Shown one piece after another: positions 2,055 to 26,367 of a stretch of 64,000 nucleotides of DNA. The DNA is taken from positions 6,878 to 70,877 of the forward strand of contig JALHQL010000003.1 of assembly GCA_022841985.1 (NCBI GenBank), given 5' to 3'. Each line of letters opens with the position of its first letter. Positions within the stretch are counted from its first letter, which is position 1. The notes beneath the pieces are model-generated. The model searched no databases. It was not told the DNA's origin and worked only from the letters and a program-made list of their open reading frames with translations. The position numbers and the translations under genes are program-made. The DNA comes from Minisyncoccota bacterium. Lineage in GTDB: Bacteria; Patescibacteriota; Minisyncoccia; Phycocordibacterales; Phycocordibacteraceae.

Positions 2055-2711
2055 CTAAACCCCTCGTTTGCCACGAGCGAGATTGGTAATAATAGGAAGA
2101 AAGGAGATGGCGATGATTACGAGCGCGATAGGGGCCACGTATTTCCAGCTATTTGGAATCACCGAGCCGAGAAGGAAACCAAAAAGCGTCATTCCTGTAC
2201 CCCATAAGATCGCACCGATAACGTTGTATGCAAGAAATTTCCTATAGGTCATAGAACCAGCGCCAGCAAGGATAGGCGCGATAGTACGTACGACGGGTAC
2301 AAATCGCGCAAGAATAATCGCCCGACCGCCATATTTCTGGTAAAAACGCTCAGTGCGTCTGAGATATTCTTGTTTGAAATACCATGAATCCTTACGGTCC
2401 TGGAGATGGTCTCCTACCTTTGCTCCAAACCAGTATCCAACCGAGTCGCCAAGTATCGCAGCGATCACAATGATCGTTATAAGAGGTCCTATAGAGAAAA
2501 AATTATTTGTCGCGAGAAGCCCTGCGACGAAAAGCAACGAGTCGCCGGGAAGGAACATGCCGACAAGAAGCCCGCTCTCAGCAAAAACGAGGAGGGCGAT
2601 ACCGATATAACCCCCTGTCTGCAGAATAGCAATCGGGTCGAGCTGTATACATGCCAAAAAGAAATTGATCATTCGGGTACAGTATACTAGAACAAATGGA
2701 ATCAGCACCAA
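2055..2711 (-). CDS. DedA family (VTT domain) membrane protein
   Basis: 218 aa. The DedA signature is GYIGIALLVFAESGLLVGMFLPGDSLLFVAGLL, with further TM helices. Confidence 0.75.
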   Translation of the reverse strand: MVLIPFVLVYCTRMINFFLACIQLDPIAILQTGGYIGIALLVFAESGLLVGMFLPGDSLLFVAGLLATNNFFSIGPLITIIVIAAILGDSVGYWFGAKVGDHLQDRKDSWYFKQEYLRRTERFYQKYGGRAIILARFVPVVRTIAPILAGAGSMTYRKFLAYNVIGAILWGTGMTLFGFLLGSVIPNSWKYVAPIALVIIAISFLPIITNLARGKRGV

Positions 2712-5458
2712 AATTATCTACGCCAGAAGATGAGCTTGCGTATCTCCGCGAGCAGGTGATGCGCAAAGAGGCAGAGCTCGCGAAAGGCGGGACTCGCGAG
2801 CGAGTCAAGATTATTTCTGAACAGATACACGAACATGCTGCGGCTCCTTCCGAAATGCTTACAAACGGATATCGCATGAACGAAGCTTCTGTAAGCGGCG
2901 CTGCAGACCAAATACTTGCCGAACTCAATCTTGGCGGTAGTGAACAGGCTATCAAGAGCTTGCAGCAAACTATAGAAAAAAAGGGAATCAAGAATGCGCT
3001 TTCCGTACTTGAAAAACTGCACGATCCGCATGTCGCAGACGACTTCCATCGGTATCTTGTACGTTACGTAGCTGCCGGCCTGCTTGCTCCCGGATACGAT
3101 GAGAAGGCGCCTCGTTTCCAGGCACTTAAAATGACCTTGTATGAAATTGCGCTTCCGGGGCCGAAAAATGCGGAGACACATGACCGCACCAAAACGCTCA
3201 AAGAACTTATTTCCGGAATGGAACAATTCTATGCCGGCCTTCTTTCGGTTGAAGATGCAAACTTGGGCGAGCCTCACTACTATGCACTCGAACTCGCAGT
3301 GCCCGCTGATAGTCCCGAGCTCCAATTTTATGCTGCGGTGCCAAATGGGAAGCGAAACCTTTTTGAAAAACAGCTCCTCGCCATATTCCCCGACGCACAC
3401 CTCGTGCCACAACCATCTGACTACAATATTTTCGCTTCAGGCGGCGTTTCGCTCGCCTCGACTGCAACTTTTACAGAGAATCCAGCCTTGCCGCTTAAAG
3501 ATTACACCGACTTCGATTATGACCCTATCAATGCGATTACAAATGCGTTTGCCAAGATAGAACACACGGGTGAAGGCGCTGCACTCCAAATCATCATCGC
3601 TCCAAAGGGAGAGCGGCATGTGAAGCATTATCGAAAAATTCTTCAAGCTTTACGCAAGGGAGAAAAGCATTCTTCGGCATTTAGCATTCCAGACACGGCT
3701 TTAGGCGCCTTTGCGCGCGATATCGGGCGAACTCTTTTTTCAAACAAGCCGAAAGATGTGGTGAAAGCAAAAGAGGCCGAGACGCGCCAGATCGAGGCAA
3801 ACAAAGCGTACATTGAACAGGTAGAAAAGAAGATTGCGGCCCCTATTGTTGGCGTGACGTTGCGGCTAGTAACTTCCTCCAAGGATGAACACACTGCCGA
3901 ACAAGTGCTCGGCGAGCTTGAGGCGGCGTTTAACCAGTTCGCGAATACGCAAGGGAATCGATTCACATTTGCGCGCGCCGCTCCGCGGCGCGCGCAAGAA
4001 ATTCTCAATGATTTTTCCTTCCGTTTGCCGGACGCGGCGCGTACCCTCCCGTTGTCGCTTCGCGAACTCACGACTATATATCACTTTCCACCATCCGGCA
4101 TCGAGAGCTCTCCGCACTTGAAGCAGGCACGCTTCACACATGCTCCTGCACCTCTTTCGTTACCGCAGTCAGGGGTGCTTCTTGGTATCAATAACTACCG
4201 CGGACAAGAAACACATCTTCATCTCGCTCCAGAGGATCGTTTGCGGCATCTTTACATCATTGGTCAAACAGGTACCGGTAAAACCGGGCTTATGAAGTCG
4301 ATGATCGTGCAAGATATTAAAAATGGCGAAGGTTGCTGCTTTATTGATCCACACGGCTCCGATATCTTAGACATTCTTGCTGCGATACCTCCTGAGCGCT
4401 ACAAAGATATAATTTATTTTGATCCTGCAGATATTTCTCGTCCATTTGGTCTTAATTTTCTCGAGTATGATCTTTCGCGTCCCGAACAGAAAACGTTCAT
4501 TGTGAATGAGTTATTGATGATCTTCCGCAGACTCTACGGCGATGTACCGGAGTCTATGGGACCGGCTTTTGAACAATATTTTCGCAATGCAACTCTGCTC
4601 GTGATGGAGGATCCGACGAGTGGTTCAACGATACTCGATATCGCTCGGGTTCTTTCTAATAAAGAGTTTCGAGAACAGAAACTTGCGAAGAGCATGAATC
4701 CTGTTGTGAACCAATTTTGGAGCGAAATTGCGACAAAAGCTGGCGGCGATGCCGCTCTTGAAAATATCGTCCCGTACATTACGAATAAATTTGACGATTT
4801 CACTGCCAACGACTTTATCCGCCCGATTGTGGGGCAGCAAGAGTCTTCCTTTAAATTTCGCGAGGTCATGGACACAAAGAAAATTCTCCTTATCAATCTT
4901 TCTAAAGGCCGTCTTGGTGAGAAAAATGCGAATCTTCTTGGTCTTATCATTGTCGGGAAGCTCTTCATGGCAGCACTCTCTCGTGCAGATAATCCGCGAG
5001 CGCCGTATCCACCGTTTTATCTCTATATCGACGAGTTCCAAAACGTTACGACCGATTCTATCCCCGGGATTCTCTCCGAGGCACGCAAATACAAGCTCGC
5101 GCTTACGGTAGCGCATCAGTTCCTCACCCAGATAGAGGAGAAGACGCGCAATGCGGTGTTTGGCAACGTCGGGAATATGGCGGTCTTCCGTACTGGCGAA
5201 GAGGATGCGGAGTTCTTCGCTAAGCAATTCGCCCCTGTTTTCGAAGCGCTTGATTTCGTCAATATAGAAAACTACAATGCGTATGTGAAAATTCTCGCGA
5301 AAGGCATTCCTCAAAAACCTTTTGACATGAAAACGCCGCCCTTGCCTCAAACAAATCTGGCTCAGATAGATGATCTTATTCACCTCTCATCGCTCACGTA
5401 TGGTCGCGACCGTGCTACAGTCGAAAATATGATTCGCGAGCGCTATCTTTCGAAATAA
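2696..5458 (+). CDS. FtsK/HerA/TraG-superfamily P-loop ATPase (DUF87/TraD-VirD4-like C-terminal half) with an ~480-aa uncharacterised soluble N-terminal region and no TM segment
   Basis: 920 aa. Walker A is IIGQTGTGKTGL. Walker B is YLYIDEFQNV. It is followed by ILSEARKYKLALTVAHQFLTQI, resembling the arginine-finger/Q-x-x-x-QL region of TraD/VirD4/FtsK ATPases. The N-terminal half has no match I recognise. Confidence 0.6.
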   Translation: MESAPKLSTPEDELAYLREQVMRKEAELAKGGTRERVKIISEQIHEHAAAPSEMLTNGYRMNEASVSGAADQILAELNLGGSEQAIKSLQQTIEKKGIKNALSVLEKLHDPHVADDFHRYLVRYVAAGLLAPGYDEKAPRFQALKMTLYEIALPGPKNAETHDRTKTLKELISGMEQFYAGLLSVEDANLGEPHYYALELAVPADSPELQFYAAVPNGKRNLFEKQLLAIFPDAHLVPQPSDYNIFASGGVSLASTATFTENPALPLKDYTDFDYDPINAITNAFAKIEHTGEGAALQIIIAPKGERHVKHYRKILQALRKGEKHSSAFSIPDTALGAFARDIGRTLFSNKPKDVVKAKEAETRQIEANKAYIEQVEKKIAAPIVGVTLRLVTSSKDEHTAEQVLGELEAAFNQFANTQGNRFTFARAAPRRAQEILNDFSFRLPDAARTLPLSLRELTTIYHFPPSGIESSPHLKQARFTHAPAPLSLPQSGVLLGINNYRGQETHLHLAPEDRLRHLYIIGQTGTGKTGLMKSMIVQDIKNGEGCCFIDPHGSDILDILAAIPPERYKDIIYFDPADISRPFGLNFLEYDLSRPEQKTFIVNELLMIFRRLYGDVPESMGPAFEQYFRNATLLVMEDPTSGSTILDIARVLSNKEFREQKLAKSMNPVVNQFWSEIATKAGGDAALENIVPYITNKFDDFTANDFIRPIVGQQESSFKFREVMDTKKILLINLSKGRLGEKNANLLGLIIVGKLFMAALSRADNPRAPYPPFYLYIDEFQNVTTDSIPGILSEARKYKLALTVAHQFLTQIEEKTRNAVFGNVGNMAVFRTGEEDAEFFAKQFAPVFEALDFVNIENYNAYVKILAKGIPQKPFDMKTPPLPQTNLAQIDDLIHLSSLTYGRDRATVENMIRERYLSK

Positions 5459-5461
5459 TCC

Positions 5462-8116
5462 ATGTCCGAAAAGCGGCCACGCGGGAAGAAAGCAGAATAT
5501 CCGGAATTCGATCCTAAGCCAGCTTTGGAAAAGCTCATTAATAAAGCATCAAAACCCTCCGGAAAGACAGCGGTAGAATCGAGTAGGGAAGCACATCAAG
5601 AAAAACAACCAGAAGCTCCAACTGAATCTCTGTCTGAGAAAGAACTTGAAAAACTCCTTCTGGACGCGGCTATTCGAAACATTGAGAGTCCAGATAGTTT
5701 TAAGGAAGTACTTAGGACGGTATTTGAGCGCACGGGTGGAATTTCTCCTGTTAATCTCGAAAGAATAAGAGCCTCCGCAAAACAGCATCTTGTCGGACCT
5801 GGTAATTATGATGAAGTTGAAAAATATATCAATGAGGAGGGATATAGATCGAAGGATCCCGTATCAAAGGAGCAGTCCAAAACTCCAGTTGAATCTCTAT
5901 CCAAGGAGCAATTGGGAAATCACATAATAAGTAGAGAAAACGATGCGTTTTTGCAGGAGTATCTTGGAAGATTTGATACTCTCAATTTCAAACCAGGATT
6001 TTTACCTGAAGAACTAGCTAAAGAGACAAATGATGCTCAACTTCAAATTTTTCTTAAAAAAATAAATGAGGAAAGAAAGCCTCTTGGAGTAACGTTTTTA
6101 AAATATATCAATGAACTGAGAGAGGCTGGCGCATCGCCTGAAGCAATTCAAACAATGATGGATGTAGCTGAAAAAAGGCTTGATACAGACATGTTTAAAA
6201 AACTGCAAGGCTTTGTTTACAATGAACAGGTGCATTACGAAGATAAAGAAAAAGGTAAAGAAGCAGTCGAAAAAAACGAAGTAGGACTCTCAAAGGGGGG
6301 TGTTGTCGCTGTCAGTCCAGAGTCAGGAGGCATTGTTCCAGAGAACCTTCCCCATGGTTCACCGGATGAGTTAGAAAAATTTGAAAAAGGCCTCATTGAA
6401 AGCGTGGGAAAATGGAAGAAAAAAAGAAATAAAATTGGTTCAAAAGAATCTCTCCAGGCGAATATGCCAATAGTTGCTGATGATCCTTCTATTGTTGATG
6501 CTGAATGGAGATCTGTATCGACACGGAGAATGGTAGAGGATGCTCGGGAGACTGTATCGTCTCCGCCACAGGATGAGCCCATCGTGTCACATACAGAAGT
6601 TCCCAAAGGTACTTTTTTTACTCCGGAGCAGGAAGAGCATCTATCAGGGGAGAGACATGAAGCATGGGAGCCTACGACACGCGCGGAGTTTATAGCGGAA
6701 TTACGTAATCTCATTTTCGGAGAAAGGAAGAGCAGAGGAAGTAATGAGCAGAACGAAGGACTAAAGACATATATTACAAAACGTTCGGAAGAATTGGGAG
6801 AAAAGGCGAAAGAATATGGTCCTATAGTCGCGGGATATATTGGTAATAAAATCGAGCGATACAATAAGTTGGGTTGGAAGACGAAGCTTGCTATCACCGG
6901 GGCTCTTGTGGCTGGAACCGCGCTTTCTGCAGGAGTTCCGGGAATTATCTCGGGAGGTTTTACTGCCGCCTTATGGAGCCAGCGTGCCATTGGAGCTATT
7001 GGCATGGGTATAAACAAGCGTAAAAAACTTGATGCCGAAATAGCCGCAAATCCGGAGCACAAACTTGCGGGGAAGTCTGAGTGGGAAAAAAATAAGCATG
7101 CAGCTTTGTACGCCACAGGATATATGTTGGCCACGTCAGGAGCCGTATACTTGGGCGTCGAAGGGTTAAAGGCGGCCGCAGAGAGCGAGTGGCTCGCCAA
7201 TATGCTCGGGCATCATTCAGATAGTTTAGAAATGTCTGAATCTTCAATCGAAGTTTTGCCGGACCCGACATCCGTACAAGAGTTAGATCCAACACTTTTT
7301 GCAGAAGAAAAAGGCAATGATCAATTGCGAATTCTTGCGGAGACTTCTTTAGCGAAACACTTGACGCCAAATGAGTGGGCTGTCCTCAATAATCATATAG
7401 CGAGCCTCACGCCTCGAGAGCGGTCTATTTTTGATCAGTTCACCACCGAATATTCAAACAAAATTAACGCTGGACAAGATGTTCCGGAACAAATTCTGAA
7501 CAATATGCCGGGTAATTCAGAAACACCCCCTCCCGATCTTTCTAGCCCAGAAGCGGCTACAATCGTTCCTGATACAGAGATTACAGAAAAATCTCTCGGC
7601 GCACAGTCGACAGATGCACCCTTCGGGTATGACCCTATTGATGGGCATGCTATGTCCGAACTGGAAGCTCAGAAGTTAGCTGATCTCAGGAACGCCATGC
7701 ACGAGGAAACCGCGAGAGAGGCGGGCGGAATGCCGCCTCGTCAGACGGAAGAAAAAGGATTTTTTGAAAAGCTCTTCGGTTCGTCTGACGAAAATCCGAC
7801 AGAGACAGTTGGTCAGTTCAGCATCGATTCTGTATCCGCGGCAGAACCACACATATATGCTGATGCGGACGGGCACTTATTCGCCCATGGCGGCTCAATC
7901 GAGGCTAGAATAGAGGAAATCCAAAAATTTCTCACTGAGAATCCAGATAAAATCGTATATGGCACAGATGACAATGGTCAATACCGGATTCCTTGGTATC
8001 TATATGAAGGTCGAGCACTCCCAAGTGAGCCGGTACGCACTAATGGCTTTTTCGGATTCGGGTCGGTGCTTATGGATGCGGCAAAGCCTGAAGAATTTGT
8101 AAAAAAGATTAAATAA
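5462..8116 (+). CDS. Large acidic, low-complexity hypothetical protein with a central two-helix membrane anchor
   Basis: 884 aa. Starts 3 nt after the ATPase stop. K/E-rich, with repeated KTPVESLSKEQL / EAPTESLSEKELEKL motifs. The hydrophobic pair is KTKLAITGALVAGTALSAGVPGIISGGFTAALW...YATGYMLATSGAVYLGV. No recognisable domain. Confidence 0.5.
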   Translation: MSEKRPRGKKAEYPEFDPKPALEKLINKASKPSGKTAVESSREAHQEKQPEAPTESLSEKELEKLLLDAAIRNIESPDSFKEVLRTVFERTGGISPVNLERIRASAKQHLVGPGNYDEVEKYINEEGYRSKDPVSKEQSKTPVESLSKEQLGNHIISRENDAFLQEYLGRFDTLNFKPGFLPEELAKETNDAQLQIFLKKINEERKPLGVTFLKYINELREAGASPEAIQTMMDVAEKRLDTDMFKKLQGFVYNEQVHYEDKEKGKEAVEKNEVGLSKGGVVAVSPESGGIVPENLPHGSPDELEKFEKGLIESVGKWKKKRNKIGSKESLQANMPIVADDPSIVDAEWRSVSTRRMVEDARETVSSPPQDEPIVSHTEVPKGTFFTPEQEEHLSGERHEAWEPTTRAEFIAELRNLIFGERKSRGSNEQNEGLKTYITKRSEELGEKAKEYGPIVAGYIGNKIERYNKLGWKTKLAITGALVAGTALSAGVPGIISGGFTAALWSQRAIGAIGMGINKRKKLDAEIAANPEHKLAGKSEWEKNKHAALYATGYMLATSGAVYLGVEGLKAAAESEWLANMLGHHSDSLEMSESSIEVLPDPTSVQELDPTLFAEEKGNDQLRILAETSLAKHLTPNEWAVLNNHIASLTPRERSIFDQFTTEYSNKINAGQDVPEQILNNMPGNSETPPPDLSSPEAATIVPDTEITEKSLGAQSTDAPFGYDPIDGHAMSELEAQKLADLRNAMHEETAREAGGMPPRQTEEKGFFEKLFGSSDENPTETVGQFSIDSVSAAEPHIYADADGHLFAHGGSIEARIEEIQKFLTENPDKIVYGTDDNGQYRIPWYLYEGRALPSEPVRTNGFFGFGSVLMDAAKPEEFVKKIK

Positions 8117-8124
8117 CTCATGCT

Positions 8125-8433
8125 ATGATTCCACCTATGCAAGATGAAATGACCGCACTTATTGCTAAAGATCTCGGTATTAAAGATCTTCCTCTCGAAG
8201 AACAGCACTCTCTCATCGCGCAGTTCGGTGAGATAGCACTCAAAGCCGCCACCTTTGCGGTCGTAGGGAAACTTACCAATGATAAGCGAGATGAATTTGC
8301 GAAGCTTGCACAGGCGGGAGATCCAACTGCACTCAAGACATTCCTTGATCACGAAGTCCCCGGACATGAAAACATAGCAAAAGCCGCGGTTGCCGAAGAG
8401 GTAAAGCGGTTTAAGGCTTTTCAAGCCCCGTAG
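8125..8433 (+). CDS. Hypothetical small protein
   Basis: 102 aa, soluble, helical. It follows the large protein after an 8-nt gap. No recognised domain. Confidence 0.35.
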   Translation: MIPPMQDEMTALIAKDLGIKDLPLEEQHSLIAQFGEIALKAATFAVVGKLTNDKRDEFAKLAQAGDPTALKTFLDHEVPGHENIAKAAVAEEVKRFKAFQAP

Positions 8434-8464: not shown

Positions 8465-8968
8465 ATGCAACCAACTCAAACCGGTATCGCCACTGCGCTT
8501 GCGCTCGTCGTCGTTATTACATTTTTCATTTTCCCGGGCCTCTTGCCTTTTAGGGCAGCAGCCCCTGCAAATGAGATGAACCCTGAAATTACCAATACTC
8601 AAACAGTACCTACTACTATGCCTACCGAAACTGAACTTAAAATAACTGATGAAATCGTGGGCACTGGTGCTGCTGCGGCAGCAGGTGACAGTGTGACGGT
8701 GCAGTATGTCGGATCACTCACAAACGGTGCTGTCTTTGATGCCTCTGCCAATCACGGAACCACTGGCTTCACCTTTACTCTCGGAGTGGGGCAGGTAATC
8801 CAGGGTTGGGATCAGGGTATAGTCGGTATGAAAGAAGGAGGGAAGCGCAAACTCGTTATTCCTGCATCGCTTGCATACGGCGATCGAGGAGCTGGAAACA
8901 TTATTCCGCCAGGTGCGACGCTTGTCTTTGTAGTGGAGCTGCTAAAGGTACAGAAGAGAGCTCGCTAA
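8465..8968 (+). CDS. FKBP-type peptidyl-prolyl cis-trans isomerase, membrane-anchored/secreted
   Basis: 167 aa with an N-terminal hydrophobic segment. The FKBP core is VQYVGSLTNGAVFDAS...GQVIQGWDQGIVGMKEGGKRKLVIPASLAYGDRGAGNIIPPGATLVFVVELLKV. Confidence 0.8.
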   Translation: MQPTQTGIATALALVVVITFFIFPGLLPFRAAAPANEMNPEITNTQTVPTTMPTETELKITDEIVGTGAAAAAGDSVTVQYVGSLTNGAVFDASANHGTTGFTFTLGVGQVIQGWDQGIVGMKEGGKRKLVIPASLAYGDRGAGNIIPPGATLVFVVELLKVQKRAR

Positions 8969-8987: not shown

Positions 8988-9019
8988 ATGGGCGGGAGTC
9001 TTTCGAGACTCCCGCCCAT
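8988..9019. terminator. Bidirectional terminator-like hairpin between convergent genes
   Basis: atgggcgggagtct ttcg agactcccgcccat, a 14-bp perfect stem, lying between the FKBP stop and the minus-strand lipoprotein stop. Confidence 0.5.
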
Positions 9020-9559: not shown

Positions 9560-9677
9560 TGGAACACCCCCTCCCTCTATGACTGGTTAATTATGTTGTG
9601 TACAAAATCCCCTGAGGAACATGATACAGGATAATCTGTATTTGTCAATACAGACCAGGTACGTTACTCTGGCATAC

Positions 9678-10898
9678 ATGAGCGCGATTAATTTCAAGAT
9701 AGAGAAGCGCACGGCTGGCGGAGCCGGCCGTGCGGGAATTCTCTCTACTCCTCACGGCACTATCCGCACGCCTGCCTTTGCGCCAGTCGGTACAAAAGCA
9801 AATGTAAAGGGTATTTTACCGAGTGCTCTTGAGGCTCTTGGTGCTGAAGTCGTACTTGCGAACACCTACCATCTCTATTTGCAGCCGGGCGAGAAGATAG
9901 TAAAAGATGCCGGCGGACTTGGAAAGTTTATGGGTTGGAAGGGTCCGACAATGACCGATTCGGGTGGTTTCCAGGTCTTCTCTCTCGGGGCTGCTTTTGG
10001 AAAGACTATTTCGAAATTTACAAAAGAAGACTCTCCACCAGAAGAGTCTGTTGCTGTATACGACGAAGGAGTGGCAAGCCAGCATGGACAGCTCGCAGTT
10101 ATTGACGATGAGGGAGTTTCGTTCACTTCGCACCTTGATGGCTCGCTGCATCGCTTTACGCCCGAGCGCTCAGTCGAGATCCAGCATTCGCTCGGCGCGG
10201 ATATTTTTTTCGCGTTCGATGAGTGCACGTCACCAACCGAGCCCTATGCGTATCAGAGAGAGGCGATGGAGCGAACGCATCGTTGGGCAGAGCGTTCTCT
10301 GAAGGCGCACCGGCAGAATATAGACGCAGTGGGGAAGCAGGCGCTTTTCGGTATCGTGCAGGGCGGTCGGCATGAAGATTTACGTAAAGAGTCAGCGCGC
10401 GAAATTGTTCGTTTGGGTTTCGATGGTGTTGGCATCGGAGGATCATTTTCTAAAGAGGATATGCGCGGAGCTCTCTCCGCGGCCATGAGCGAACTTCCAG
10501 AAGAACTTCCGCGACATTTCCTTGGTATTGGCGAGCCGAGCGACATTCTTGAAGGTATTGCGAGCGGTATGGATCTCTTTGATTGTGTTGCGGCAACACG
10601 ACTTGGTCGCCATGGCTCTATCTACACGAAACACGGTTTACTTCATCTGAAAAACGAAAAGTATCGAAATGATTTTTCTGCACTCGATTCAGGTACTGTC
10701 ATTTCCGGTACAGAATCGTTTACGCGTGCATACGTGTCGCATCTCCTGCGAAGTGGAGAAATGCTCGGAGCGGTCATCGCCTCGATGCATAATGTCGGTT
10801 TTATTTTGCGGCTTTTTGCGGATGCTCGCCAAGCTATCCTTGATGGACGATTTGAGGATTATCGTGCAGACTTCATTCGCACATACACCCATGGCTAA
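9678..10898 (+). CDS. tgt: Queuine tRNA-ribosyltransferase (tRNA-guanine transglycosylase)
   Basis: Motifs are RTPAFAPVGT, VLANTYHLYLQPG, TDSGGFQVFSL, LFGIVQGG and GIGEPSD. The start was chosen at ATG 9678 (MSAINFKIEK...). The ORF track starts at 9621. The C-terminal Zn subdomain lacks the CxCxxC cysteines (see findings). Confidence 0.85.
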   Translation: MSAINFKIEKRTAGGAGRAGILSTPHGTIRTPAFAPVGTKANVKGILPSALEALGAEVVLANTYHLYLQPGEKIVKDAGGLGKFMGWKGPTMTDSGGFQVFSLGAAFGKTISKFTKEDSPPEESVAVYDEGVASQHGQLAVIDDEGVSFTSHLDGSLHRFTPERSVEIQHSLGADIFFAFDECTSPTEPYAYQREAMERTHRWAERSLKAHRQNIDAVGKQALFGIVQGGRHEDLRKESAREIVRLGFDGVGIGGSFSKEDMRGALSAAMSELPEELPRHFLGIGEPSDILEGIASGMDLFDCVAATRLGRHGSIYTKHGLLHLKNEKYRNDFSALDSGTVISGTESFTRAYVSHLLRSGEMLGAVIASMHNVGFILRLFADARQAILDGRFEDYRADFIRTYTHG

Positions 10899-12924
10899 TT
10901 TTAAACTACATACTCCATTTCCTCCGGCGGGCGACCAGCCGCAGGCTATCGCGGCCCTTGAGAAAGGGCTGAAGAAAGGTCTGCGTCACCAGACATTGTT
11001 TGGTGTGACTGGAAGTGGCAAAACCTTTACGGTAGCGAACGTCATCGCAAAACATGATAAGCCGACGCTTGTCCTTGCTCACAACAAAACGCTCGCAGCT
11101 CAGCTCGCGCAGGAGTATCGAGAGTTCTTTCCCGAAAACGCGGTGCATTATTTCGTCTCGTACTACGACTACTACCAACCAGAGGCATATATCGCGCACT
11201 CGGATACCTATATTGAGAAAGAGGCGATGATCAACGCCGAGATAGACCGTTTGCGTCACGCTGCAACACAGGCACTGCTTACTCGCAAAGACGTTATCAT
11301 TGTCGCTTCAGTTTCAGCTATCTATGGTCTTGGTTCGCCTGAAGAATATGAAAAAGTGCATGTGAAGATAGAAAAAGGGTCAGTCGAAGATCGTGCGGCT
11401 CTTATTCGGAAACTCATTGGTATTTATTTTGAACGGACGATCGCTGACCTTAATCCTGGGCAGTTGCGTGCCATCGGGAATTCGCTTGAGTTTATGCCGG
11501 TGAACGAACGCTCGATTTACCGCATCACGTTTGATGGCGATCGTATCACCTCTATCGATCAGCTTGATCCGGTTTCGCGTGCGCGAATGTCTGCACCTGA
11601 ATCAATTTTTGTGTTCCCAGCAAAACACTTTGTTACAAATGAAGAGGATCGATTGCGTGCCATTGAGAATATCAAGCTTGAGCTTGCGGAGCAGCTTGCG
11701 AAGTTTAAACGTGAAGAAAAGCCATTGGAGCATGAACGTCTAAAGCGGCGCACACTCCACGACCTCGCTCTTATTCGTGAACTCGGTTATACAAGCGGGA
11801 TTGAGAATTACTCTCGTCACTTTGACGGCAGAAAGCCGGGTGAACCGCCGTATACGCTTCTTTCGTATTTTCCGAAAGATTTTCTTACCGTTATCGACGA
11901 GTCGCATGTCACTGTCCCGCAAATAGGCGGTATGTATGCGGGTGATAAGTCGAGGAAAGATACGCTCGTCGAATACGGATTCCGTCTTCCTTCTGCACGT
12001 GACAATCGCCCGCTTCGGTTTGAAGAATTTGAAAAGCGTACGGGACAGATCTTGTATACAAGTGCGACGCCGGGACCATATGAGCGCGAGCATTCCGAGC
12101 AGGTTGTTGAGCAAATCATCCGCCCGACGGGTCTTATTGATCCCGAACTCACGGTACGTGCCGTAAGCGAAACAAGTAGCTATAAAGGACAAGTCGCCGA
12201 TTTTATCGCGGAAGCAGGATTGGTTATCAAGCGTGGTGGTAGAGCACTCGCGACAACTCTTACCAAACAAATGGCCGAAGATCTTTCTTCATTCTTGCGC
12301 GAAAAGGGCATTAAGGCAGAGTATCTTCATTCGGATGTGAAGACGATAGATCGTATCGACATCCTTACTAATTTTCGTAAGGGCATATTTGACATCTTGA
12401 TCGGTGTAAATCTCTTGCGCGAAGGACTCGACTTACCGGAGGTTGAGCTTGTGGGTATCTTAGATGCTGACAAGGAAGGATTCCTTCGTAGCGAAACTTC
12501 GCTCATTCAGACCATTGGCCGCGCAGCTCGCAATGTCCTCGGCCGAGTCATTTTGTATGCTGATACCATCACAGGTTCGCTTGAGGGAGCCATAGGTGAG
12601 ACGAATCGACGGCGCGCGATTCAGATGACCTATAACGAGAAACATGGCATTACGCCTCAGACCATCAAGAAAGAAATACATGACATCGCGGCCTCGATGC
12701 GTACGGAGCATCAGCGCACTATTGATGAACTTCTTGTGCTTGATACTCTTGCGTACAAAGACGATCCAGCGGCATTCATTAAACGGAAGAGGGAAGAAAT
12801 GGCGGAGGCTGTGGAACAACTCGATTTCGAAACAGCAGCACTTATTCGTGATGAGCTGTATAAGCTCGAAGGAAACGGACCAAAAAAGAAACCTCGCGCG
12901 CGTAAGGCTCTTTCGGGGGCGTGA
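10891..12924 (+). CDS. uvrB: Excinuclease ABC subunit B
   Basis: Start at ATG 10891 (MANFKLHTPFPPAGDQPQAIAAL), overlapping the tgt stop by 8 nt. The track ORF from 10669 is a read-through artefact. Walker A is GVTGSGKTFT, with helicase motifs, the beta-hairpin region and a C-terminal UvrC-binding helix (ALIRDELYKLE). Confidence 0.9.
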   Translation: MANFKLHTPFPPAGDQPQAIAALEKGLKKGLRHQTLFGVTGSGKTFTVANVIAKHDKPTLVLAHNKTLAAQLAQEYREFFPENAVHYFVSYYDYYQPEAYIAHSDTYIEKEAMINAEIDRLRHAATQALLTRKDVIIVASVSAIYGLGSPEEYEKVHVKIEKGSVEDRAALIRKLIGIYFERTIADLNPGQLRAIGNSLEFMPVNERSIYRITFDGDRITSIDQLDPVSRARMSAPESIFVFPAKHFVTNEEDRLRAIENIKLELAEQLAKFKREEKPLEHERLKRRTLHDLALIRELGYTSGIENYSRHFDGRKPGEPPYTLLSYFPKDFLTVIDESHVTVPQIGGMYAGDKSRKDTLVEYGFRLPSARDNRPLRFEEFEKRTGQILYTSATPGPYEREHSEQVVEQIIRPTGLIDPELTVRAVSETSSYKGQVADFIAEAGLVIKRGGRALATTLTKQMAEDLSSFLREKGIKAEYLHSDVKTIDRIDILTNFRKGIFDILIGVNLLREGLDLPEVELVGILDADKEGFLRSETSLIQTIGRAARNVLGRVILYADTITGSLEGAIGETNRRRAIQMTYNEKHGITPQTIKKEIHDIAASMRTEHQRTIDELLVLDTLAYKDDPAAFIKRKREEMAEAVEQLDFETAALIRDELYKLEGNGPKKKPRARKALSGA

Positions 12925-20494: not shown

Positions 20495-20567
20495 GGGCCC
20501 TTAGCTCATTTGGTAGAGCACCTCATTTGCAATGAGGGGGTGACCGGTTCGAATCCGGTAGGGTCCA
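20495..20567 (+). tRNA. tRNA-Ala (anticodon UGC)
   Basis: Manual fold. Acceptor GGGCCCT/AGGGTCC with G3:U70. Anticodon stem CCTCA/TGAGG, loop TTTGCAA. T-loop TTCGAAT. 73 nt, CCA not encoded. Confidence 0.8.
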
Positions 20568-20621
20568 CTAAACAAAGAATCTGGGAATCGTACGGAATAT
20601 CTGTTATGGTTAAGTGCGTTC

Positions 20622-20695
20622 GCGCTCTTAGCTCAGTTGGTTAGAGCGTCCGCCTCACACGCGGAAGGTCGCAAGTTCGAATCTTGCAGAGCGCA
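20622..20695 (+). tRNA. tRNA-Val (anticodon CAC)
   Basis: Manual fold. Acceptor GCGCTCT/AGAGCGC. Anticodon stem TCCGC/GCGGA, loop CTCACAC. T-arm GCAAG-TTCGAAT-CTTGC. 74 nt. Confidence 0.8.
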
Positions 20696-20757
20696 CAAGC
20701 AAGCAAAACTGCGAGGTAGGGTCGTGAAAATTTGTGCCTGACCACAAGTACACAAAG

Positions 20758-20828
20758 CGGGCTGGAGTATGCCGGTAGTACGCACGCTTCGGGTGCGTGT
20801 AGACCGGGTTCAATTCCCGGCAGCCCGA
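20758..20828 (+). tRNA. tRNA-Pro (anticodon CGG)
   Basis: Manual fold. Acceptor CGGGCTG/CAGCCCG with the C1:G72 characteristic of bacterial tRNA-Pro. D-stem GTAT/GTAC. Anticodon stem CACGC/GCGTG, loop TTCGGGT. T-arm CCGGG-TTCAATT-CCCGG. G at position 8 is atypical, so the boundaries are moderately confident. Confidence 0.6.
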
Positions 20829-20868
20829 CAAAACTATAATGCGGATACGCAAGACACGTATCCGTAAA

Positions 20869-20939
20869 CGGGATATCGTATAGTGGTAGTACGCAAGGCT
20901 GGGGGTCTTGCAGTCCCGGTCCGATTCCGGGTATCCCGA
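20869..20939 (+). tRNA. tRNA-Pro (anticodon GGG)
   Basis: Manual fold. Acceptor CGGGATA/TATCCCG (C1:G72). The D-arm is identical to the neighbouring tRNA-Pro. Anticodon stem CAAGG/TCTTG, loop CTGGGGG. T-arm CCCGG-TCCGATT-CCGGG. Confidence 0.6.
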
Positions 20940-20997: not shown

Positions 20998-21127
20998 AGC
21001 CCTTCGGGCTTCCTCCCTGCGCTCGCCTCGGACAAATAAACGAAGACGTTTTTTGTCGCTCGGCTCGCTTGGCAGTAGAGCGCTTCATTATGGTCCCGTG
21101 CCGTTCGGGTACATATGTGCGGACATC

Positions 21128-21200
21128 GGGCCATTAGCTCAACTGGTAGAGCGCGTCATTCGCATTGACGAGGCAAGCGGTTCGACTCCGCTATGGTCCA
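21128..21200 (+). tRNA. tRNA-Ala (anticodon CGC), CCA encoded at 21201..21203
   Basis: Manual fold. Acceptor GGGCCAT/ATGGTCC with G3:U70. Anticodon stem CGTCA/TGACG, loop TTCGCAT. T-loop TTCGACT. The 3' CCA overlaps the ATG of the downstream CDS. Confidence 0.8.
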
Positions 21201-21202
21201 CC

Positions 21203-22501
21203 ATGAGATCAGACATTGTTCATCCGGGTGCGGACAAGCTCAAGTATGAGATACGTGAGATTGTAACCGTTGCAAAGCGAGTTGCGCTCTCCGGCACACC
21301 GGTCGTGTGGGAGAATATCGGTGATCCTGTGGCTAAGGGCGAAGTTCCTCCAGAGTGGATAAAAAAAATTATCAGAGACACTCTTCAAGAAGATCAAAGT
21401 TTTTCCTATTCACCGACCAAGGGTTTGGATGAAACTCGCATCTATATCGCCCGCGAACGGAACCTCGAGGGTGGCATTCAGATACTGCCTGACGATATTT
21501 TATTTTTTAATGGGCTTGGCGACGGCATATCTCATATCTATCGGAATCTTAATCCTCGCGCGCGAATACTCGGACCCGATCCTGCCTACCCAACACATTC
21601 CTCTGCCGAAGCGGCTCATGCTAATAAGCCACACATGACGTACCGTCTTGACCCTGAAAAGGAGTGGCGGCCAGACCTTGTGGATATGGAGAAAAAGATA
21701 CGAGCAAATAAAAACATTGCTGGCATTCTTATCATTAATCCGGATAATCCGACGGGGTTTGTATATCCTCAAGAAACAATACGGGCTATAGTCGCACTCG
21801 CAAAGAAATATAAGCTTTTTATCGTTTCTGATGAAATTTATTCGAACCTTGCGTATGAAGGAAGCGGAATGCGCAAACTGGCATCGGTTATTGGCACCGT
21901 TCCGGGTATCGCTATGCGGGGAATCTCGAAAGAGTTTCCATGGCCAGGTGCAAGGTGCGGATGGATTGAGTTCTATAATCGAGGCAAGGACAAAAATTTT
22001 GATCGGTATGCGCGCTCAATCGTGGATTCAAAAATGCTTGAAGTGTGTTCGACGACGCTTCCTCAAAAAGTGTTGCCGAAAGTGATGGGGGATCCCCGCT
22101 ATTACCCCTATTTAGCAGCGCGTACACGCCATTACGAAGAACGTGCAGAGTATGCTCACGGGATACTTTCTAAAATCCCAAATATTATCGTTCACAAACC
22201 GCGTGGCGCATTTTATATGACGTGTGTGTTCCGGAAGGGGGCTCTGAAGAAAAACCAAACGCTTCCGGTACGGGGCGATCTAAAAAAGTTCATCGAGTCA
22301 TGTCTGACAAAGGCATCTTTGGATAAACGTTTTGTGTACTACCTCCTGGCTTCTACTGGTATCTGCGTTGTACCGCTCTCCTCCGGCTTTAACTCATCGC
22401 TCCAAGGGTTTCGGTTCTTGTTGTTGGAGCAGGATACCGATCGATTTAAAAAGACGATACATACGATAGCCAAAGCCATTTCTGATTTCGCAAAGTCTTG
22501 A
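21203..22501 (+). CDS. Pyridoxal-phosphate-dependent aminotransferase, class I/II (aspartate/alanine aminotransferase-like)
   Basis: Start at ATG 21203, directly after the tRNA. The track ORF from 21053 reads through the tRNA. Contains ILIINPDNPTGFVY, FIVSDEIYSNLAY, and the PLP-lysine context SKEFPWPGARCGWI. Confidence 0.75.
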   Translation: MRSDIVHPGADKLKYEIREIVTVAKRVALSGTPVVWENIGDPVAKGEVPPEWIKKIIRDTLQEDQSFSYSPTKGLDETRIYIARERNLEGGIQILPDDILFFNGLGDGISHIYRNLNPRARILGPDPAYPTHSSAEAAHANKPHMTYRLDPEKEWRPDLVDMEKKIRANKNIAGILIINPDNPTGFVYPQETIRAIVALAKKYKLFIVSDEIYSNLAYEGSGMRKLASVIGTVPGIAMRGISKEFPWPGARCGWIEFYNRGKDKNFDRYARSIVDSKMLEVCSTTLPQKVLPKVMGDPRYYPYLAARTRHYEERAEYAHGILSKIPNIIVHKPRGAFYMTCVFRKGALKKNQTLPVRGDLKKFIESCLTKASLDKRFVYYLLASTGICVVPLSSGFNSSLQGFRFLLLEQDTDRFKKTIHTIAKAISDFAKS

Positions 22502-22575
22502 GGAATTTCCTCATATAGAAAATGTCGACGCTATAGTAAGATGGTTGGCAGAAAAGATTCGCGAAAAGAAAATAA

Positions 22576-22646
22576 GGGCCTATAGTTCAGCGGTAGAACG
22601 CGTCCATGGCATGGACGAGGTCGGAGTTCGACTCTCCGTAGGTCCA
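22576..22646 (+). tRNA. tRNA-Ala (anticodon GGC)
   Basis: Manual fold. Acceptor GGGCCTA/TAGGTCC with G3:U70. D-stem GTTC/GAAC. Anticodon stem CGTCC/GGACG, loop ATGGCAT. T-arm CGGAG-TTCGACT-CTCCG. 71 nt. Confidence 0.75.
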
Positions 22647-22688
22647 CAAAATTTAATCCTCTTAGGCTCTCTGGTATACTATCCGCAT

Positions 22689-23090
22689 ATGCTGCAAGAA
22701 TTCAAACAGTTTTTGCTCCGCGGGAATGTCGTTGATTTGGCGGTCGGTGTCGTTATAGGAGCTTCTTTCGGTACTATTGTTACTGCGTTAGTACATGATC
22801 TGCTTACGCCGTTTCTCGCAGCCATCATCAAGGTGCCTGATTTTGGGGGATTATTTTTCACTCTCAATGGCAGCAAATTCATGTATGGACACTTTATTAA
22901 TGCTCTCATATCGTTTGTGCTCATAGCGGCTGCCGTGTTCTTTTTTATTGTGAAGCCAATGAATATGCTTATCTCTCGATCTCGAGGGGAAGCTCCTGCA
23001 GATCCCACAACGAAAAAATGTTCGGAATGCATAAGTGAAATACCTATTGCCGCGAAACGTTGTATGTATTGCACACAGATTGTTACCTAG
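22689..23090 (+). CDS. mscL: Large-conductance mechanosensitive channel MscL with a C-terminal CxxC...CxxC zinc-ribbon-like tail
   Basis: Start at ATG 22689 (MLQEFKQFLLRGNVVDLAVGVVIGASFGTIV...), a canonical MscL N-terminus and TM1. The track ORF from 22545 reads through the tRNA. The C-terminus is KKCSECISEIPIAAKRCMYCTQIVT. Confidence 0.8.
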   Translation: MLQEFKQFLLRGNVVDLAVGVVIGASFGTIVTALVHDLLTPFLAAIIKVPDFGGLFFTLNGSKFMYGHFINALISFVLIAAAVFFFIVKPMNMLISRSRGEAPADPTTKKCSECISEIPIAAKRCMYCTQIVT

Positions 23091-25389: not shown

Positions 25390-26334
25390 ATGGATAAACC
25401 AAAAACAACAGCAAAAGATTTTTTCCTATGGGCAGGAGCGATGATTACGTTCTATTGGAGCATCATCGCTACAATTTTACTTATACTCAATTACATTGAC
25501 TATACGTTTCCAAACGCGCTTTCGTATCTGCCGGCCAATCCGTATGAGAGCGGCATTAGCAATGAGATGGCATCGATTATCGTTCTGCTTCCGCTCTACA
25601 TGTTCCTTATGCATCTTATACGGAAAGATGCGGCTCGTGACCCTTCAAGGAACGAAATCTGGGTACGCCGATGGGCAATCATACTGACGCTCTTTGTTGC
25701 AGGTGTCGCGATAGCGATCGATCTCATCATGCTTCTCACCACATTCTTAAGCGGAGAGGAATTGACGATAGCATTTTTGCTTAAAGTGCTTGTTGTTCTT
25801 CTTGTTGCAGCTGGAGTCTTCATGCATTTCATCGCTGATTTGAAAGGGTACTGGGATATGTTTCCAATGCGCAAGCAAGCAGTGAGTGTCAGTGTGGCAG
25901 TGCTCGCGGTTGTGGTGATAGGCGCAGGCTTCTTTATCGTCGGTACGCCAGGGCAAGCTCGCCTCGCACGCTTTGATGTGCAAAAGGTAAATGACTTAGT
26001 AAGTATGCAGTACCAGGTTACCTGTTATTTCCAGGCAAAGCAGAAGTTGCCTGCCACACTTGCCGATCTCAATAATCCTCTTGGGTGTGGCTCCACACCA
26101 GTTGATCCTCAAACCAATGAATCGTATGTATATGAGGCGACGGGCAAGCTCTCATTCAAACTATGCGCAGTATTTAATGCAGAAGGTCGCGGGAATCAAG
26201 ACATGTATCTTGAACGCACTATACCAATGCCAGTGGGCAGCAAAGGAATACAGCAAGATAATTGGCAGCACGATAGCGGGCAAGTCTGTTTTGATCGAAC
26301 TATTGATCCAAGCTTCTTCCCACCGCTCAAGTAA
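25390..26334 (+). CDS. Hypothetical membrane protein (5 TM helices plus a C-terminal extracytoplasmic Cys-containing domain)
   Basis: 314 aa. Hydrophobic helices in the first ~190 aa. The C-terminal ~120 aa carries 4 Cys. No recognised domain. Confidence 0.4.
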   Translation: MDKPKTTAKDFFLWAGAMITFYWSIIATILLILNYIDYTFPNALSYLPANPYESGISNEMASIIVLLPLYMFLMHLIRKDAARDPSRNEIWVRRWAIILTLFVAGVAIAIDLIMLLTTFLSGEELTIAFLLKVLVVLLVAAGVFMHFIADLKGYWDMFPMRKQAVSVSVAVLAVVVIGAGFFIVGTPGQARLARFDVQKVNDLVSMQYQVTCYFQAKQKLPATLADLNNPLGCGSTPVDPQTNESYVYEATGKLSFKLCAVFNAEGRGNQDMYLERTIPMPVGSKGIQQDNWQHDSGQVCFDRTIDPSFFPPLK

Positions 26335-26367
26335 GTGTTTTTAAGTCGGGACCCACTGCTCGATTAT

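Follow-up and report, generated by a model that had tools for sequence, protein, structure and literature searches.

A predicted coupling-protein-class ATPase on a patescibacterial chromosome and its putative accessory genes

Type IV coupling proteins (T4CPs) constitute the VirD4/TraD class of hexameric motors within the FtsK/HerA superfamily. Patescibacteria account for much of bacterial diversity, and their dependence on host cells runs through envelope machines that are poorly understood. In this work, we describe a 64,000-nucleotide stretch of the genome of a Minisyncoccota bacterium (assembly GCA_022841985.1, contig JALHQL010000003.1, positions 6,878 to 70,877), referred to below as the window, and within it a gene for a 920-amino-acid (aa) ATPase, which is followed by the genes of an 884-aa protein, called here the partner, and of a 102-aa protein of the DUF5663 family. 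We consider it moderately probable that the ATPase is a chromosomal 'orphan' T4CP homologue belonging to a large patescibacterial family, and that the partner and the DUF5663 protein are its optional, clade-specific accessories. Our confidence is high for the family and the architecture of the ATPase, and low for the role of the partner. The present analysis establishes the family to which the ATPase belongs, the arrangement of its domains, its conservation and synteny, and where the two-gene cassette is present or absent.

A 2025 survey counted 5,713 VirD4-type T4CP homologues in 2,918 Patescibacteria genomes, just 148 of which lie near virB4 (Quinonero-Coronel et al., PMC12102498). According to the same survey, the patescibacterial genes of type IV secretion systems (T4SSs) derive from monoderm conjugation systems, and for the T4CP homologues of this phylum 'exaptation cannot be ruled out'. 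In phylum, chromosomal site and annotation class, and in having no virB4 or relaxase gene close by, the window ATPase is like the surveyed proteins and may be one of their kind; the accessible text of the survey does not describe a VirB4-like DUF8128 domain, a division into forms with and without a transmembrane (TM) helix, or a downstream cassette (PMC12102498). The second described system to be compared is the T4SS ATPase VirB4, whose N-terminal domain (NTD) is a membrane-embedded dimer in contact with VirB3 and VirB8 (PMC12857230).

Class and architecture of the ATPase

The ATPase gene occupies positions 2696-5458 of the window on the forward strand (920 aa; TAA stop at 5456-5458, followed by TCC). 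On the same strand, the partner gene begins with the ATG at 5462 and ends with the TAA stop at 8114-8116 (5462-8116; 884 aa), and the open reading frame (ORF) of the small, helical, acidic DUF5663 protein lies at 8125-8433 (102 aa). The genes are separated by 3 nt and 8 nt, respectively. These coordinates and gaps are exactly those given in an earlier sequence-only reading of this DNA, which had also described a soluble FtsK/HerA/TraG-superfamily ATPase with canonical Walker motifs and a TraD/VirD4-like C-terminal block; profiles and fold agree with that description. The Walker A motif, GQTGTGKT, is located at aa 523-530 (nt 4262-4285) and the Walker B motif, YLYIDE, at aa 775-780 (nt 5018-5035), after which the SEARKYKLALTVAHQFLTQI block is found in the C-terminal half of the protein. 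Residues K529, D779 and E780 are invariant in 65 homologues.

Profile comparisons point to the T4CP class. Among 55 diverse members of the family, TrwB_AAD_bind matched in all 55 (best E 3e-13), TraG-D_C in 53 (best E 2e-8) and T4SS-DNA_transf in 27 (best E 3e-12). Three Pfam models had been proposed in the sequence-only reading as a check of the ATPase; one of them, TraG-D_C, was matched above its cut-off by the window protein, whereas DUF87 (22.1 bits, cut-off 23.2) and FtsK_SpoIIIE (PF01580; 11.8 bits, cut-off 24) fell short, both being confined to the Walker A region. TrwB_AAD_bind likewise remained below its cut-off in this particular protein (19.7 bits against 20.5). The VirB4 ATPase profile TIGR00929 scored 14.2 bits against a cut-off of 643, and AAA_10 was weak in 11 of the 55 members. 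When the family alignment was used for a sequence-profile search of the PDB, TrwB and DotL were the best solved relatives, around Walker A alone, and no match was obtained for the N-terminal half. No NurA gene was found as a neighbour of the ATPase, and fold matches to HerA were weaker than those to TrwB and TrwK. By profile, the C-terminal half is thus predicted to be of the T4CP class, TrwB-like, and not of the VirB4, FtsK or HerA type. The earlier proposal of a separate machine had been made dependent on the ATPase not clustering firmly with a characterised family whose partners are known and absent here; it does fall into the VirD4/TraD-type class, and its family within that class is huge and usually stand-alone, which counts in part against that proposal.

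The predicted structure divides the protein into three parts. The AlphaFold2 (AF2) model of the full-length ATPase has a pLDDT of 87.9. Its first part is a soluble helical extension (aa 1-135; 2696-3100, forward strand) with helices running from H10-27 to H111-126, which is specific to one subfamily and carries the conserved motif TPEDELAYLREQV. The second part, at aa ~140-480 (3113-4135, forward strand), is the DUF8128 domain, recognised by the precomputed PF26449 annotation of the identical protein (P0001) and of all listed homologues; a local Pfam scan of the window protein and of the 55 members gave no such match. The third is the T4CP-type nucleotide-binding domain at aa ~490-880 (4163-5335, forward strand), in which a helical insertion (aa ~598-712) is placed by the model between Walker A and Walker B. 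The sequence-only reading had stated that the first ~480 aa match nothing recognisable. This no longer holds, as aa ~140-480 correspond to a catalogued domain with a predicted fold resembling the VirB4 NTD.

In the search of the full-length model with Foldseek, the best match was TrwK/VirB4 over ~920 columns (E 9e-13), followed by TrwB (1e9s, 1gl7) over ~440 columns, with E-values of 3.5e-11 to ~4e-11 and TM-scores of 0.62-0.66 on the target. Weaker matches included HerA and Cagbeta (Cagbeta-CagZ, 8dol). The isolated region aa 128-492 was modelled with a pLDDT of 92.2 and a pTM of 0.91, and its only significant matches in the PDB were 13 TrwK/VirB4 chains (E 3e-6 to 1e-3); the next entry had an E-value of 9e-3 and low probability. 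Because no other RecA-type ATPase occurs among these matches, the similarity is presumably to the NTD specific to VirB4. On this basis, DUF8128 can provisionally be assigned a VirB4-NTD-like fold.

No TM segment is present in the ATPase, as had been claimed before. The most hydrophobic 19-aa window on the Kyte-Doolittle scale reaches 1.57 at aa 744-765, where the AF2 model places a helix of the ATPase domain (H742-765). Residues 1-490 contain no hydrophobic segment.

With TrwB, TraD and VirD4, the window ATPase shares the nucleotide-binding domain, the helical insertion, the Walker motifs and the TrwB_AAD_bind and TraG-D_C matches. Unlike them, it lacks an N-terminal TM domain, does not lie beside a relaxase or T4SS gene, and possesses an additional ~340-aa DUF8128 domain together with the 135-aa helical extension. 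With VirB4/TrwK, it has in common the plan of an NTD followed by a RecA-like C-terminal domain and a length of about 800-900 aa, DUF8128 matching, among PDB folds, the TrwK NTD only. It differs from VirB4/TrwK in that its C-terminal domain is T4CP-like by sequence and that VirB3, VirB6 and VirB8 are not adjacent; no such neighbours were found in the window or in related loci. Those family members that do carry an N-terminal TM helix may be laid out like VirB3-VirB4 fusions.

The family and its relatives

An exhaustive search of 1.84 billion cluster representatives assigned 5,340 clusters (50% identity, E<1e-30) to the family, and the source names seen were all patescibacterial. One 50%-identical homologue (P0130) is filed under Patiriisocius sp., a flavobacterium, and many Kaiserbacteria-like metagenome-assembled genomes (MAGs; L007, L011, L017 and others) are titled 'uncultured Candidatus Saccharibacteria bacterium'; in both cases, these are probably labelling or binning errors. 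Close homologues, 80-93% identical over the full length, occur in many MAGs of Kaiserbacteria, Paceibacterota and Minisyncoccota. In NCBI records, family members are named 'DUF87 domain-containing', 'TraM recognition domain-containing' or 'type IV secretory system conjugative DNA transfer family protein'.

In a comparison of 80 species-representative loci, the ATPase has a median identity of 80% to its counterpart in the window, TGT one of 78% and UvrB one of 87%. Since these values are comparable, the ATPase evolves like a core gene. It is chromosomal and vertically inherited, and the synteny around it is stable across the 80 species. In the closest species representative (L003/L007, CAYHIQ010000001.1, 5235-7997; 93% identity), the ATPase is split into ORFs of 813 aa and 100 aa, which reflects a frameshift, a pseudogene or an assembly error; a similar split is seen in L075 (638 and 269 aa).

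Two groups can be told apart by the N-termini of the 150 best representatives. Most representatives are ~800 aa long, with a single TM helix directly before DUF8128. In the group of the window ATPase (~900-930 aa), the soluble ~135-aa helical extension replaces this helix and follows the pattern S/TPEEELxYLREQV. Named members of this group belong to Paceibacteria-type groups (Wolfebacteria, Taylorbacteria, Parcubacteria and others). One TM-bearing homologue is a stand-alone gene beside FtsH. Many TM-anchored DUF8128 ATPases (P0187-P0215, e.g. P0188, P0193, P0205 and P0209) have disordered, Pro/Ala-rich C-terminal tails of 400-1,200 aa, which contain recurring PPIGAPPV and SLIHFVDP and end in a conserved (K)L.(K/P)GE(V/I)(F/Y)(V/I)DE.GNV(I/V).GE. 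Long disordered appendages thus seem to be recurrent in this motor family. Relatives of 1,400-2,000 aa were also considered as ATPase-partner fusions and rejected; their tails are Pro/Ala-rich and disordered, contain no hydrophobic segment and are not matched by the hidden Markov models (HMMs) of the partner.

In other Paceibacteria, TM-less ATPases that are 43-51% identical to the window protein lie in or beside a Map/NDK neighbourhood. At L087, L090, L091 and the P0354 locus, NDK is found downstream of the ATPase and Map or a SecY-Adk-Map operon upstream, with DUF2238 and RNase J after NDK in three of the four; the partner was detected in none of these four loci. At a fifth locus, L089, a short contig that carries P0133 in a different gene context, the ATPase is followed after 7 nt by an unrelated ORF whose product is acidic and disordered.

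Outside Patescibacteria, tblastn revealed distant homologues, covering both halves of the protein, on plasmids of Bacillus, Clostridium, Streptomyces and archaea and in Bacillus phage G. An example is an 885-aa 'DUF87 domain-containing protein' of small Bacillus conjugative-type plasmids (e.g. NZ_CP154917.1); the copy encoded by a 27.5-kb B. subtilis plasmid shows 24% identity over aa 156-881 (E 3e-40) and resembles the window ATPase in having both the DUF8128 and the ATPase half, no TM segment and an acidic C-terminal tail. The two differ in their surroundings: the plasmid gene lies directly upstream of genes for a Replic_Relax relaxase, TcpC and an AAA_10 VirB4-like ATPase, whereas the window gene is placed among housekeeping genes and precedes the partner and DUF5663 genes. 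By gene order, the plasmid homologue occupies the coupling-protein position of a Gram-positive conjugation operon. This context fits the derivation of patescibacterial T4SS genes from monoderm conjugation systems that the survey reports (PMC12102498).

Two matches to phage and defence collections concern the same protein. The PHROG family phrog_5156 matches aa 200-915 (E 5e-67) and is the same family as gp156 of Bacillus phage G (JN638751.1, 89194-93336; L093), which is annotated 'MsbA-like', is of the DUF8128 type and lies beside the VirB-like gp155. The PADLOC model mad8, a MADS defence ATPase, matches aa 517-865 (E 3.9e-14); as no other MADS genes are nearby, this match probably reflects shared superfamily ancestry.

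The partner, the DUF5663 protein and their surroundings

The partner is an acidic protein (pI 5.12) whose hydrophobic stretches are limited to aa ~478-520 (nt 6893-7021) and 548-567 (nt 7103-7162), both on the forward strand. Both are Gly/Ala-rich and marginal, with simple Hessa-scale sums of +4.0 and +4.2 kcal/mol, whereas the adjacent DedA protein has 0.6-2.5 kcal/mol in most of its TM helices. They are part of a central conserved domain (aa 400-585; 6659-7216, forward strand), in which a basic juxtamembrane helical region precedes the hydrophobic segments. A second conserved domain of ~100 aa forms the C-terminus (aa 785-884; 7814-8113, forward strand) and ends in P.P(D/E)EF.K.IK. Conservation is highest in the basic juxtamembrane GE.YNKL.WK.K and the Gly/Ala-rich hydrophobic region, and the N-terminal ~400 aa are variable. 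Charge is distributed unevenly: aa 401-570 are basic (pI 9.5), and aa 571-784 have a pI of 4.3 and just 6% K+R. The partner had been portrayed in the sequence-only reading as acidic and repeat-containing, with central hydrophobic helices as its only hydrophobic features. Its acidity and the central position of these segments are borne out, although the segments are just marginally hydrophobic; the repeats are not, as self-BLAST detected none. No matches were found in Pfam, NCBIfam, PADLOC or PHROGs. A positively charged C-terminal secretion tail was considered and rejected, since the final 12 aa carry a median net charge of 0.

By sequence comparison, the partner is fast-evolving. Its identity is about 36% compared with 80% for the ATPase, and its length varies from 529 to 1200 aa. 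A word-indexed search retrieved nine homologues, with at most 67% identity where the ATPase reaches 93%. HMMs of the central (aa 400-585) and C-terminal (aa 785-884) domains matched 59-60 of the 62 ORFs located immediately downstream of related ATPases, and nothing else in the related loci or the window. The concern that the gene might be several small genes fused by a sequencing error can be set aside: it is a single gene in about 60 genomes, and the central hydrophobic region is kept.

The third ORF matches Pfam DUF5663 over aa 18-98 (25.6 bits, cut-off 23.7); its product has a pI of 5.3 and is 71% conserved. A small helical (acidic) protein beside a T4CP-class ATPase is also known from CagZ-Cagbeta and from IcmS/IcmW of DotL, a putative analogy drawn from gene order.

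Conservation of the gene neighbourhood, suggested earlier as a check, was confirmed. Of the 53 species-representative loci in which 4.5 kb or more follow the ATPase, 46 have the partner, adjacent and tightly coupled. The distance from ATPase stop to partner start lies between -4 and +9 nt in 52 of 58 related loci, which places the adjacency beyond chance, and the cassette is, as far as gene spacing can tell, translationally coupled to the ATPase. Fifty loci have both the partner and the DUF5663 gene, nine (seven distinct) have neither, and one has the partner only. The two genes co-vary and are therefore gained or lost as a unit. In the sequences compared, the cassette is specific to this Kaiserbacteria-level clade.

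Seven related species lack both genes and retain a TM-less ATPase, which is conserved to the same degree in its three regions (67/77/88%, against 66/76/88% where the cassette is present). The N-terminal extension itself is not less conserved without the partner (67% vs 66%). Because these seven species keep the ATPase without the cassette, the partner is a lineage-specific accessory rather than an obligatory anchor, and the sequence-only picture of a dedicated translocation module built around a pump is not borne out. In L091, whose ATPase is 51% identical to that of the window, a 53-aa ORF and a DUF5663 gene lie downstream in place of the large partner. The presence of DUF5663 beside the ATPase there suggests that the DUF5663 protein binds the ATPase.

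Downstream of the cassette, a gene for an FKBP-type peptidyl-prolyl isomerase is located at 8465-8968 on the forward strand (Pfam FKBP_C, 1e-31). Its hydrophobic N-terminus, MQPTQTGIATALALVVVITFFIFPGLLPF, may be a TM anchor or a signal, and the isomerase is for that reason probably extracytoplasmic. FKBP remains a neighbour of the ATPase with or without the cassette and is present in nearly all related loci. A strong, bidirectional terminator-like hairpin (8988-9019; 14-bp stem with 9 GC pairs) lies just after it, between FKBP on the forward strand and a convergent 177-aa ORF on the reverse strand. FKBP is thus probably the last gene of the ATPase transcription unit, and a likely operon, judged from gene order and this hairpin, would comprise the ATPase, partner, DUF5663 and FKBP genes. 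On the other side, a DedA/VTT-family membrane protein (2055-2711, reverse strand) is a conserved, divergently oriented neighbour outside the module.

The window is otherwise ordinary chromosome, with even GC content throughout, and belongs to a Kaiserbacteria-like patescibacterium (class Paceibacteria). Its genes include those of DedA, the FKBP isomerase, TGT, UvrB, UvrA, UvrC, Ddl, LeuRS, PheST, pyruvate kinase, LexA and TruB, along with a tRNA cluster. Several details of these genes may be recorded. The longest UvrB ORF (10669-12924, forward strand) overlaps TGT (9621-10898, forward strand) by 230 nt; its profile alignment begins at residue 77, which puts the likely UvrB start close to nt 10897. 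The tRNA cluster has six genes (Ala-TGC, Val-CAC, Pro-CGG, Pro-GGG, Ala-CGC and Ala-GGC), located at 20495-20939, 21128-21203 and 22576-22647. Two of the tRNA-Ala genes are inside the 5' ends of the called ORFs 21053-22501 and 22545-23090, the true starts of which therefore lie further downstream. The ORF at 25390-26334 (forward strand) contains a DUF5671 domain (E 4.7e-15), another DUF family in the window alongside DUF5663. Finally, a NUDIX domain (Pfam E 1.6e-15) occupies aa 392-519 of the 955-aa leucyl-tRNA synthetase ORF (26335-29202, forward strand), right behind the editing domain, which is an unusual fusion or insertion.

Possible roles of the ATPase and its cassette

For the reading introduced at the outset, in which the ATPase is an orphan T4CP homologue with optional accessories, we infer an oligomeric state of the ATPase, a topology of the partner, a physical interaction and a substrate as follows. 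The ATPase would form a ring, powered by ATP, on the cytoplasmic side of the membrane, docked there by way of DUF8128 and/or partner proteins, and would be both the receptor of a macromolecular substrate and the motor that acts on it. It may operate together with a patescibacterial VirB4-type T4SS whose genes lie elsewhere, or its role may be exapted. A VirB4-like NTD gives a TM-less ATPase a plausible docking route (PMC12857230). The partner would be an integral or monotopic membrane protein whose N-terminal arm, variable and disordered, and whose basic juxtamembrane domain would face the cytoplasm, an orientation suggested by the basic character of aa 401-570 and the scarcity of K+R in aa 571-784. 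Should the chain pass through the membrane an odd number of times, its acidic C-terminal arm, which is poor in K and R, and the conserved domain at the end would be external. In this arrangement, the partner may act as an optional adaptor between motor and envelope, and the DUF5663 protein may be a small adaptor that binds the T4CP or the partner.

A number of observations weigh against parts of this reading. In the window ATPase, TraG-D_C (24.8 bits, cut-off 22) is the sole Pfam gathering score reached, and the NCBIfam models of TraD and of CD1115 VirD4-like proteins are matched partially and far below their cut-offs (TIGR03743, 50.3 vs 366; NF045973, 35.7 vs 250). The resemblance of aa 128-492 to TrwK is one of fold only, with TM-scores of 0.35-0.43 on the query and a root-mean-square deviation of about 8 A, and the Pfam model of the VirB4 NTD, CagE_TrbE_VirB, gave a sequence signal in none of the 55 family members. 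As the sequence-only reading had noted, other type IV secretion and conjugation genes are missing from the surroundings: among the 38 ORFs of the 64 kb that were scanned with Pfam there were no T4SS, VirB4, relaxase, integrase or phage/packaging genes, and neither a relaxase nor a VirB4-type T4SS was found in the related loci examined. According to the survey, a t4cp homologue of S. epibionticum, possibly a DUF8128 protein, is not essential for epibiotic growth (PMC12102498). Membrane insertion of the partner is putative, the segments predicted to insert being marginal. The equally conserved, TM-less ATPase of the seven species without partner and DUF5663 is joined by distant TM-less homologues, in other Paceibacteria and on the Bacillus plasmid, that also have no such partner. 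Because the ATPase is equally conserved without the partner, support for a direct contact between the two is limited to gene order.

The alternative that survives best, although we regard it as rather unlikely, is that the partner is cargo, namely an exported or host-directed, membrane-inserting substrate read through its C-terminal domain, with the DUF5663 protein as its chaperone or adaptor and with the ATPase serving other substrates in species without the cassette. The partner evolves very fast and varies in length, and its C-terminal ~100 aa are nevertheless conserved; gain or loss of the cassette leaves the ATPase unaffected; and the DUF5663 protein is small, helical and acidic (pI 5.3), as are many secretion chaperones. 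The marginal hydrophobicity of the putative TM segments of the partner also agrees, as this is a reported trait of TM-containing effectors of type III secretion systems and T4SSs. T4CP genes typically adjoin the gene of a substrate, according to the published accounts (PMC12102498, PMC12857230), and the Bacillus plasmid homologue is followed by a relaxase. However, the conservation of the partner peaks in the juxtamembrane and hydrophobic core and not in a terminal signal, its charges obey the positive-inside rule as in a resident membrane protein, and the last 12 aa form no positively charged tail. No toxin or enzyme domain was recognised in it (Pfam, NCBIfam, PADLOC, PHROGs), a secretion channel is not known for this genome, and in L091 the DUF5663 gene follows the ATPase without a large partner to be chaperoned.

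A broader evolutionary proposal is unlikely to a somewhat greater degree. According to it, the DUF8128 ATPases would be an ancient third branch of T4SS-type motors, combining a VirB4-like docking NTD with a T4CP-like motor and exapted by Patescibacteria for an envelope function independent of T4SSs. In the present clade, the motor would make up a new dedicated pathway together with the membrane-spanning partner, the DUF5663 protein and FKBP as an exported foldase, and this pathway would serve for displaying or turning over a fast-evolving surface protein that contacts the host.

We find it quite unlikely that the locus encodes a self-contained, T4SS-independent translocation machine in which the hairpin of the partner is the obligatory tether or channel of a TM-less pump, as the sequence-only reading had envisaged. 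The tight translational coupling, kept in 46 of 53 species, would agree with it, as would the lack in the ATPase of the TM helix of most relatives, the restriction of the hydrophobic segments of the module to the partner and the absence of T4SS genes from the 64 kb. Against this stand the seven species in which the TM-less ATPase is equally conserved without a partner, and the other Paceibacteria in which it stands alone between Map and NDK. Moreover, a channel formed from two or three weak helices is unlikely, the family descends from bona fide conjugative T4CPs, and the VirB4-like NTD could itself dock the ATPase to the membrane or to a T4SS (PMC12857230).

Very unlikely, in our view, is a housekeeping DNA translocase similar to FtsK/SpoIIIE, acting in segregation, DNA uptake or repair next to incidental neighbours. 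Membership of the FtsK/HerA superfamily, a conservation equal to that of TGT and UvrB, weak FtsK_SpoIIIE matches in 38 of 55 members and the housekeeping contexts (UvrB/UvrA/UvrC here, SecY-Adk-Map elsewhere) could all be read in this way, but T4CP models fit better in every member, the FtsK_SpoIIIE score of the window protein is 11.8 bits against 24, and no FtsK gamma or winged-helix domain is seen. The uvr synteny is specific to the clade, with other neighbours elsewhere, and in S. epibionticum ComEC-dependent competence is separable from the essentiality of the T4SS and of type IV pili (PMC12857230). A defence ATPase of the HerA/MADS type, or a remnant of a decayed integrated conjugative element or prophage, is barely credible: the mad8 match (E 4e-14), the weak HerA and DndH matches, phrog_5156 (E 5e-67) and the homologues in Bacillus phage G and on plasmids are set against PADLOC matches confined to the ATPase domain, conservation at the housekeeping level, a stable vertical housekeeping synteny in 80 species, and the lack of an integrase, a relaxase, other defence genes or a compositional anomaly.

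The orphan T4CP reading does not make the ATPase a new kind of protein, as its family is catalogued, annotated and recently surveyed. In literature searches, no papers mentioning DUF8128 or DUF5663 were found. As far as could be established, three points are new: that DUF8128 has a predicted fold like that of the VirB4 NTD, that the family divides into TM-bearing and TM-less subfamilies, and that the partner and DUF5663 form a cassette.

Thousands of VirD4-type T4CP homologues, mostly far from the essential VirB4 T4SS, have been reported in about 2,900 Patescibacteria genomes (PMC12102498). What is added for the DUF8128 family is a predicted VirB4-like NTD joined to a T4CP-like motor, the existence of TM-anchored and TM-less forms, and conservation at the level of core genes. 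This architecture bears on the divergence of VirB4 and coupling proteins and offers handles for experiments, and the clade-specific cassette provides a natural presence/absence experiment for the substrate of the motor.

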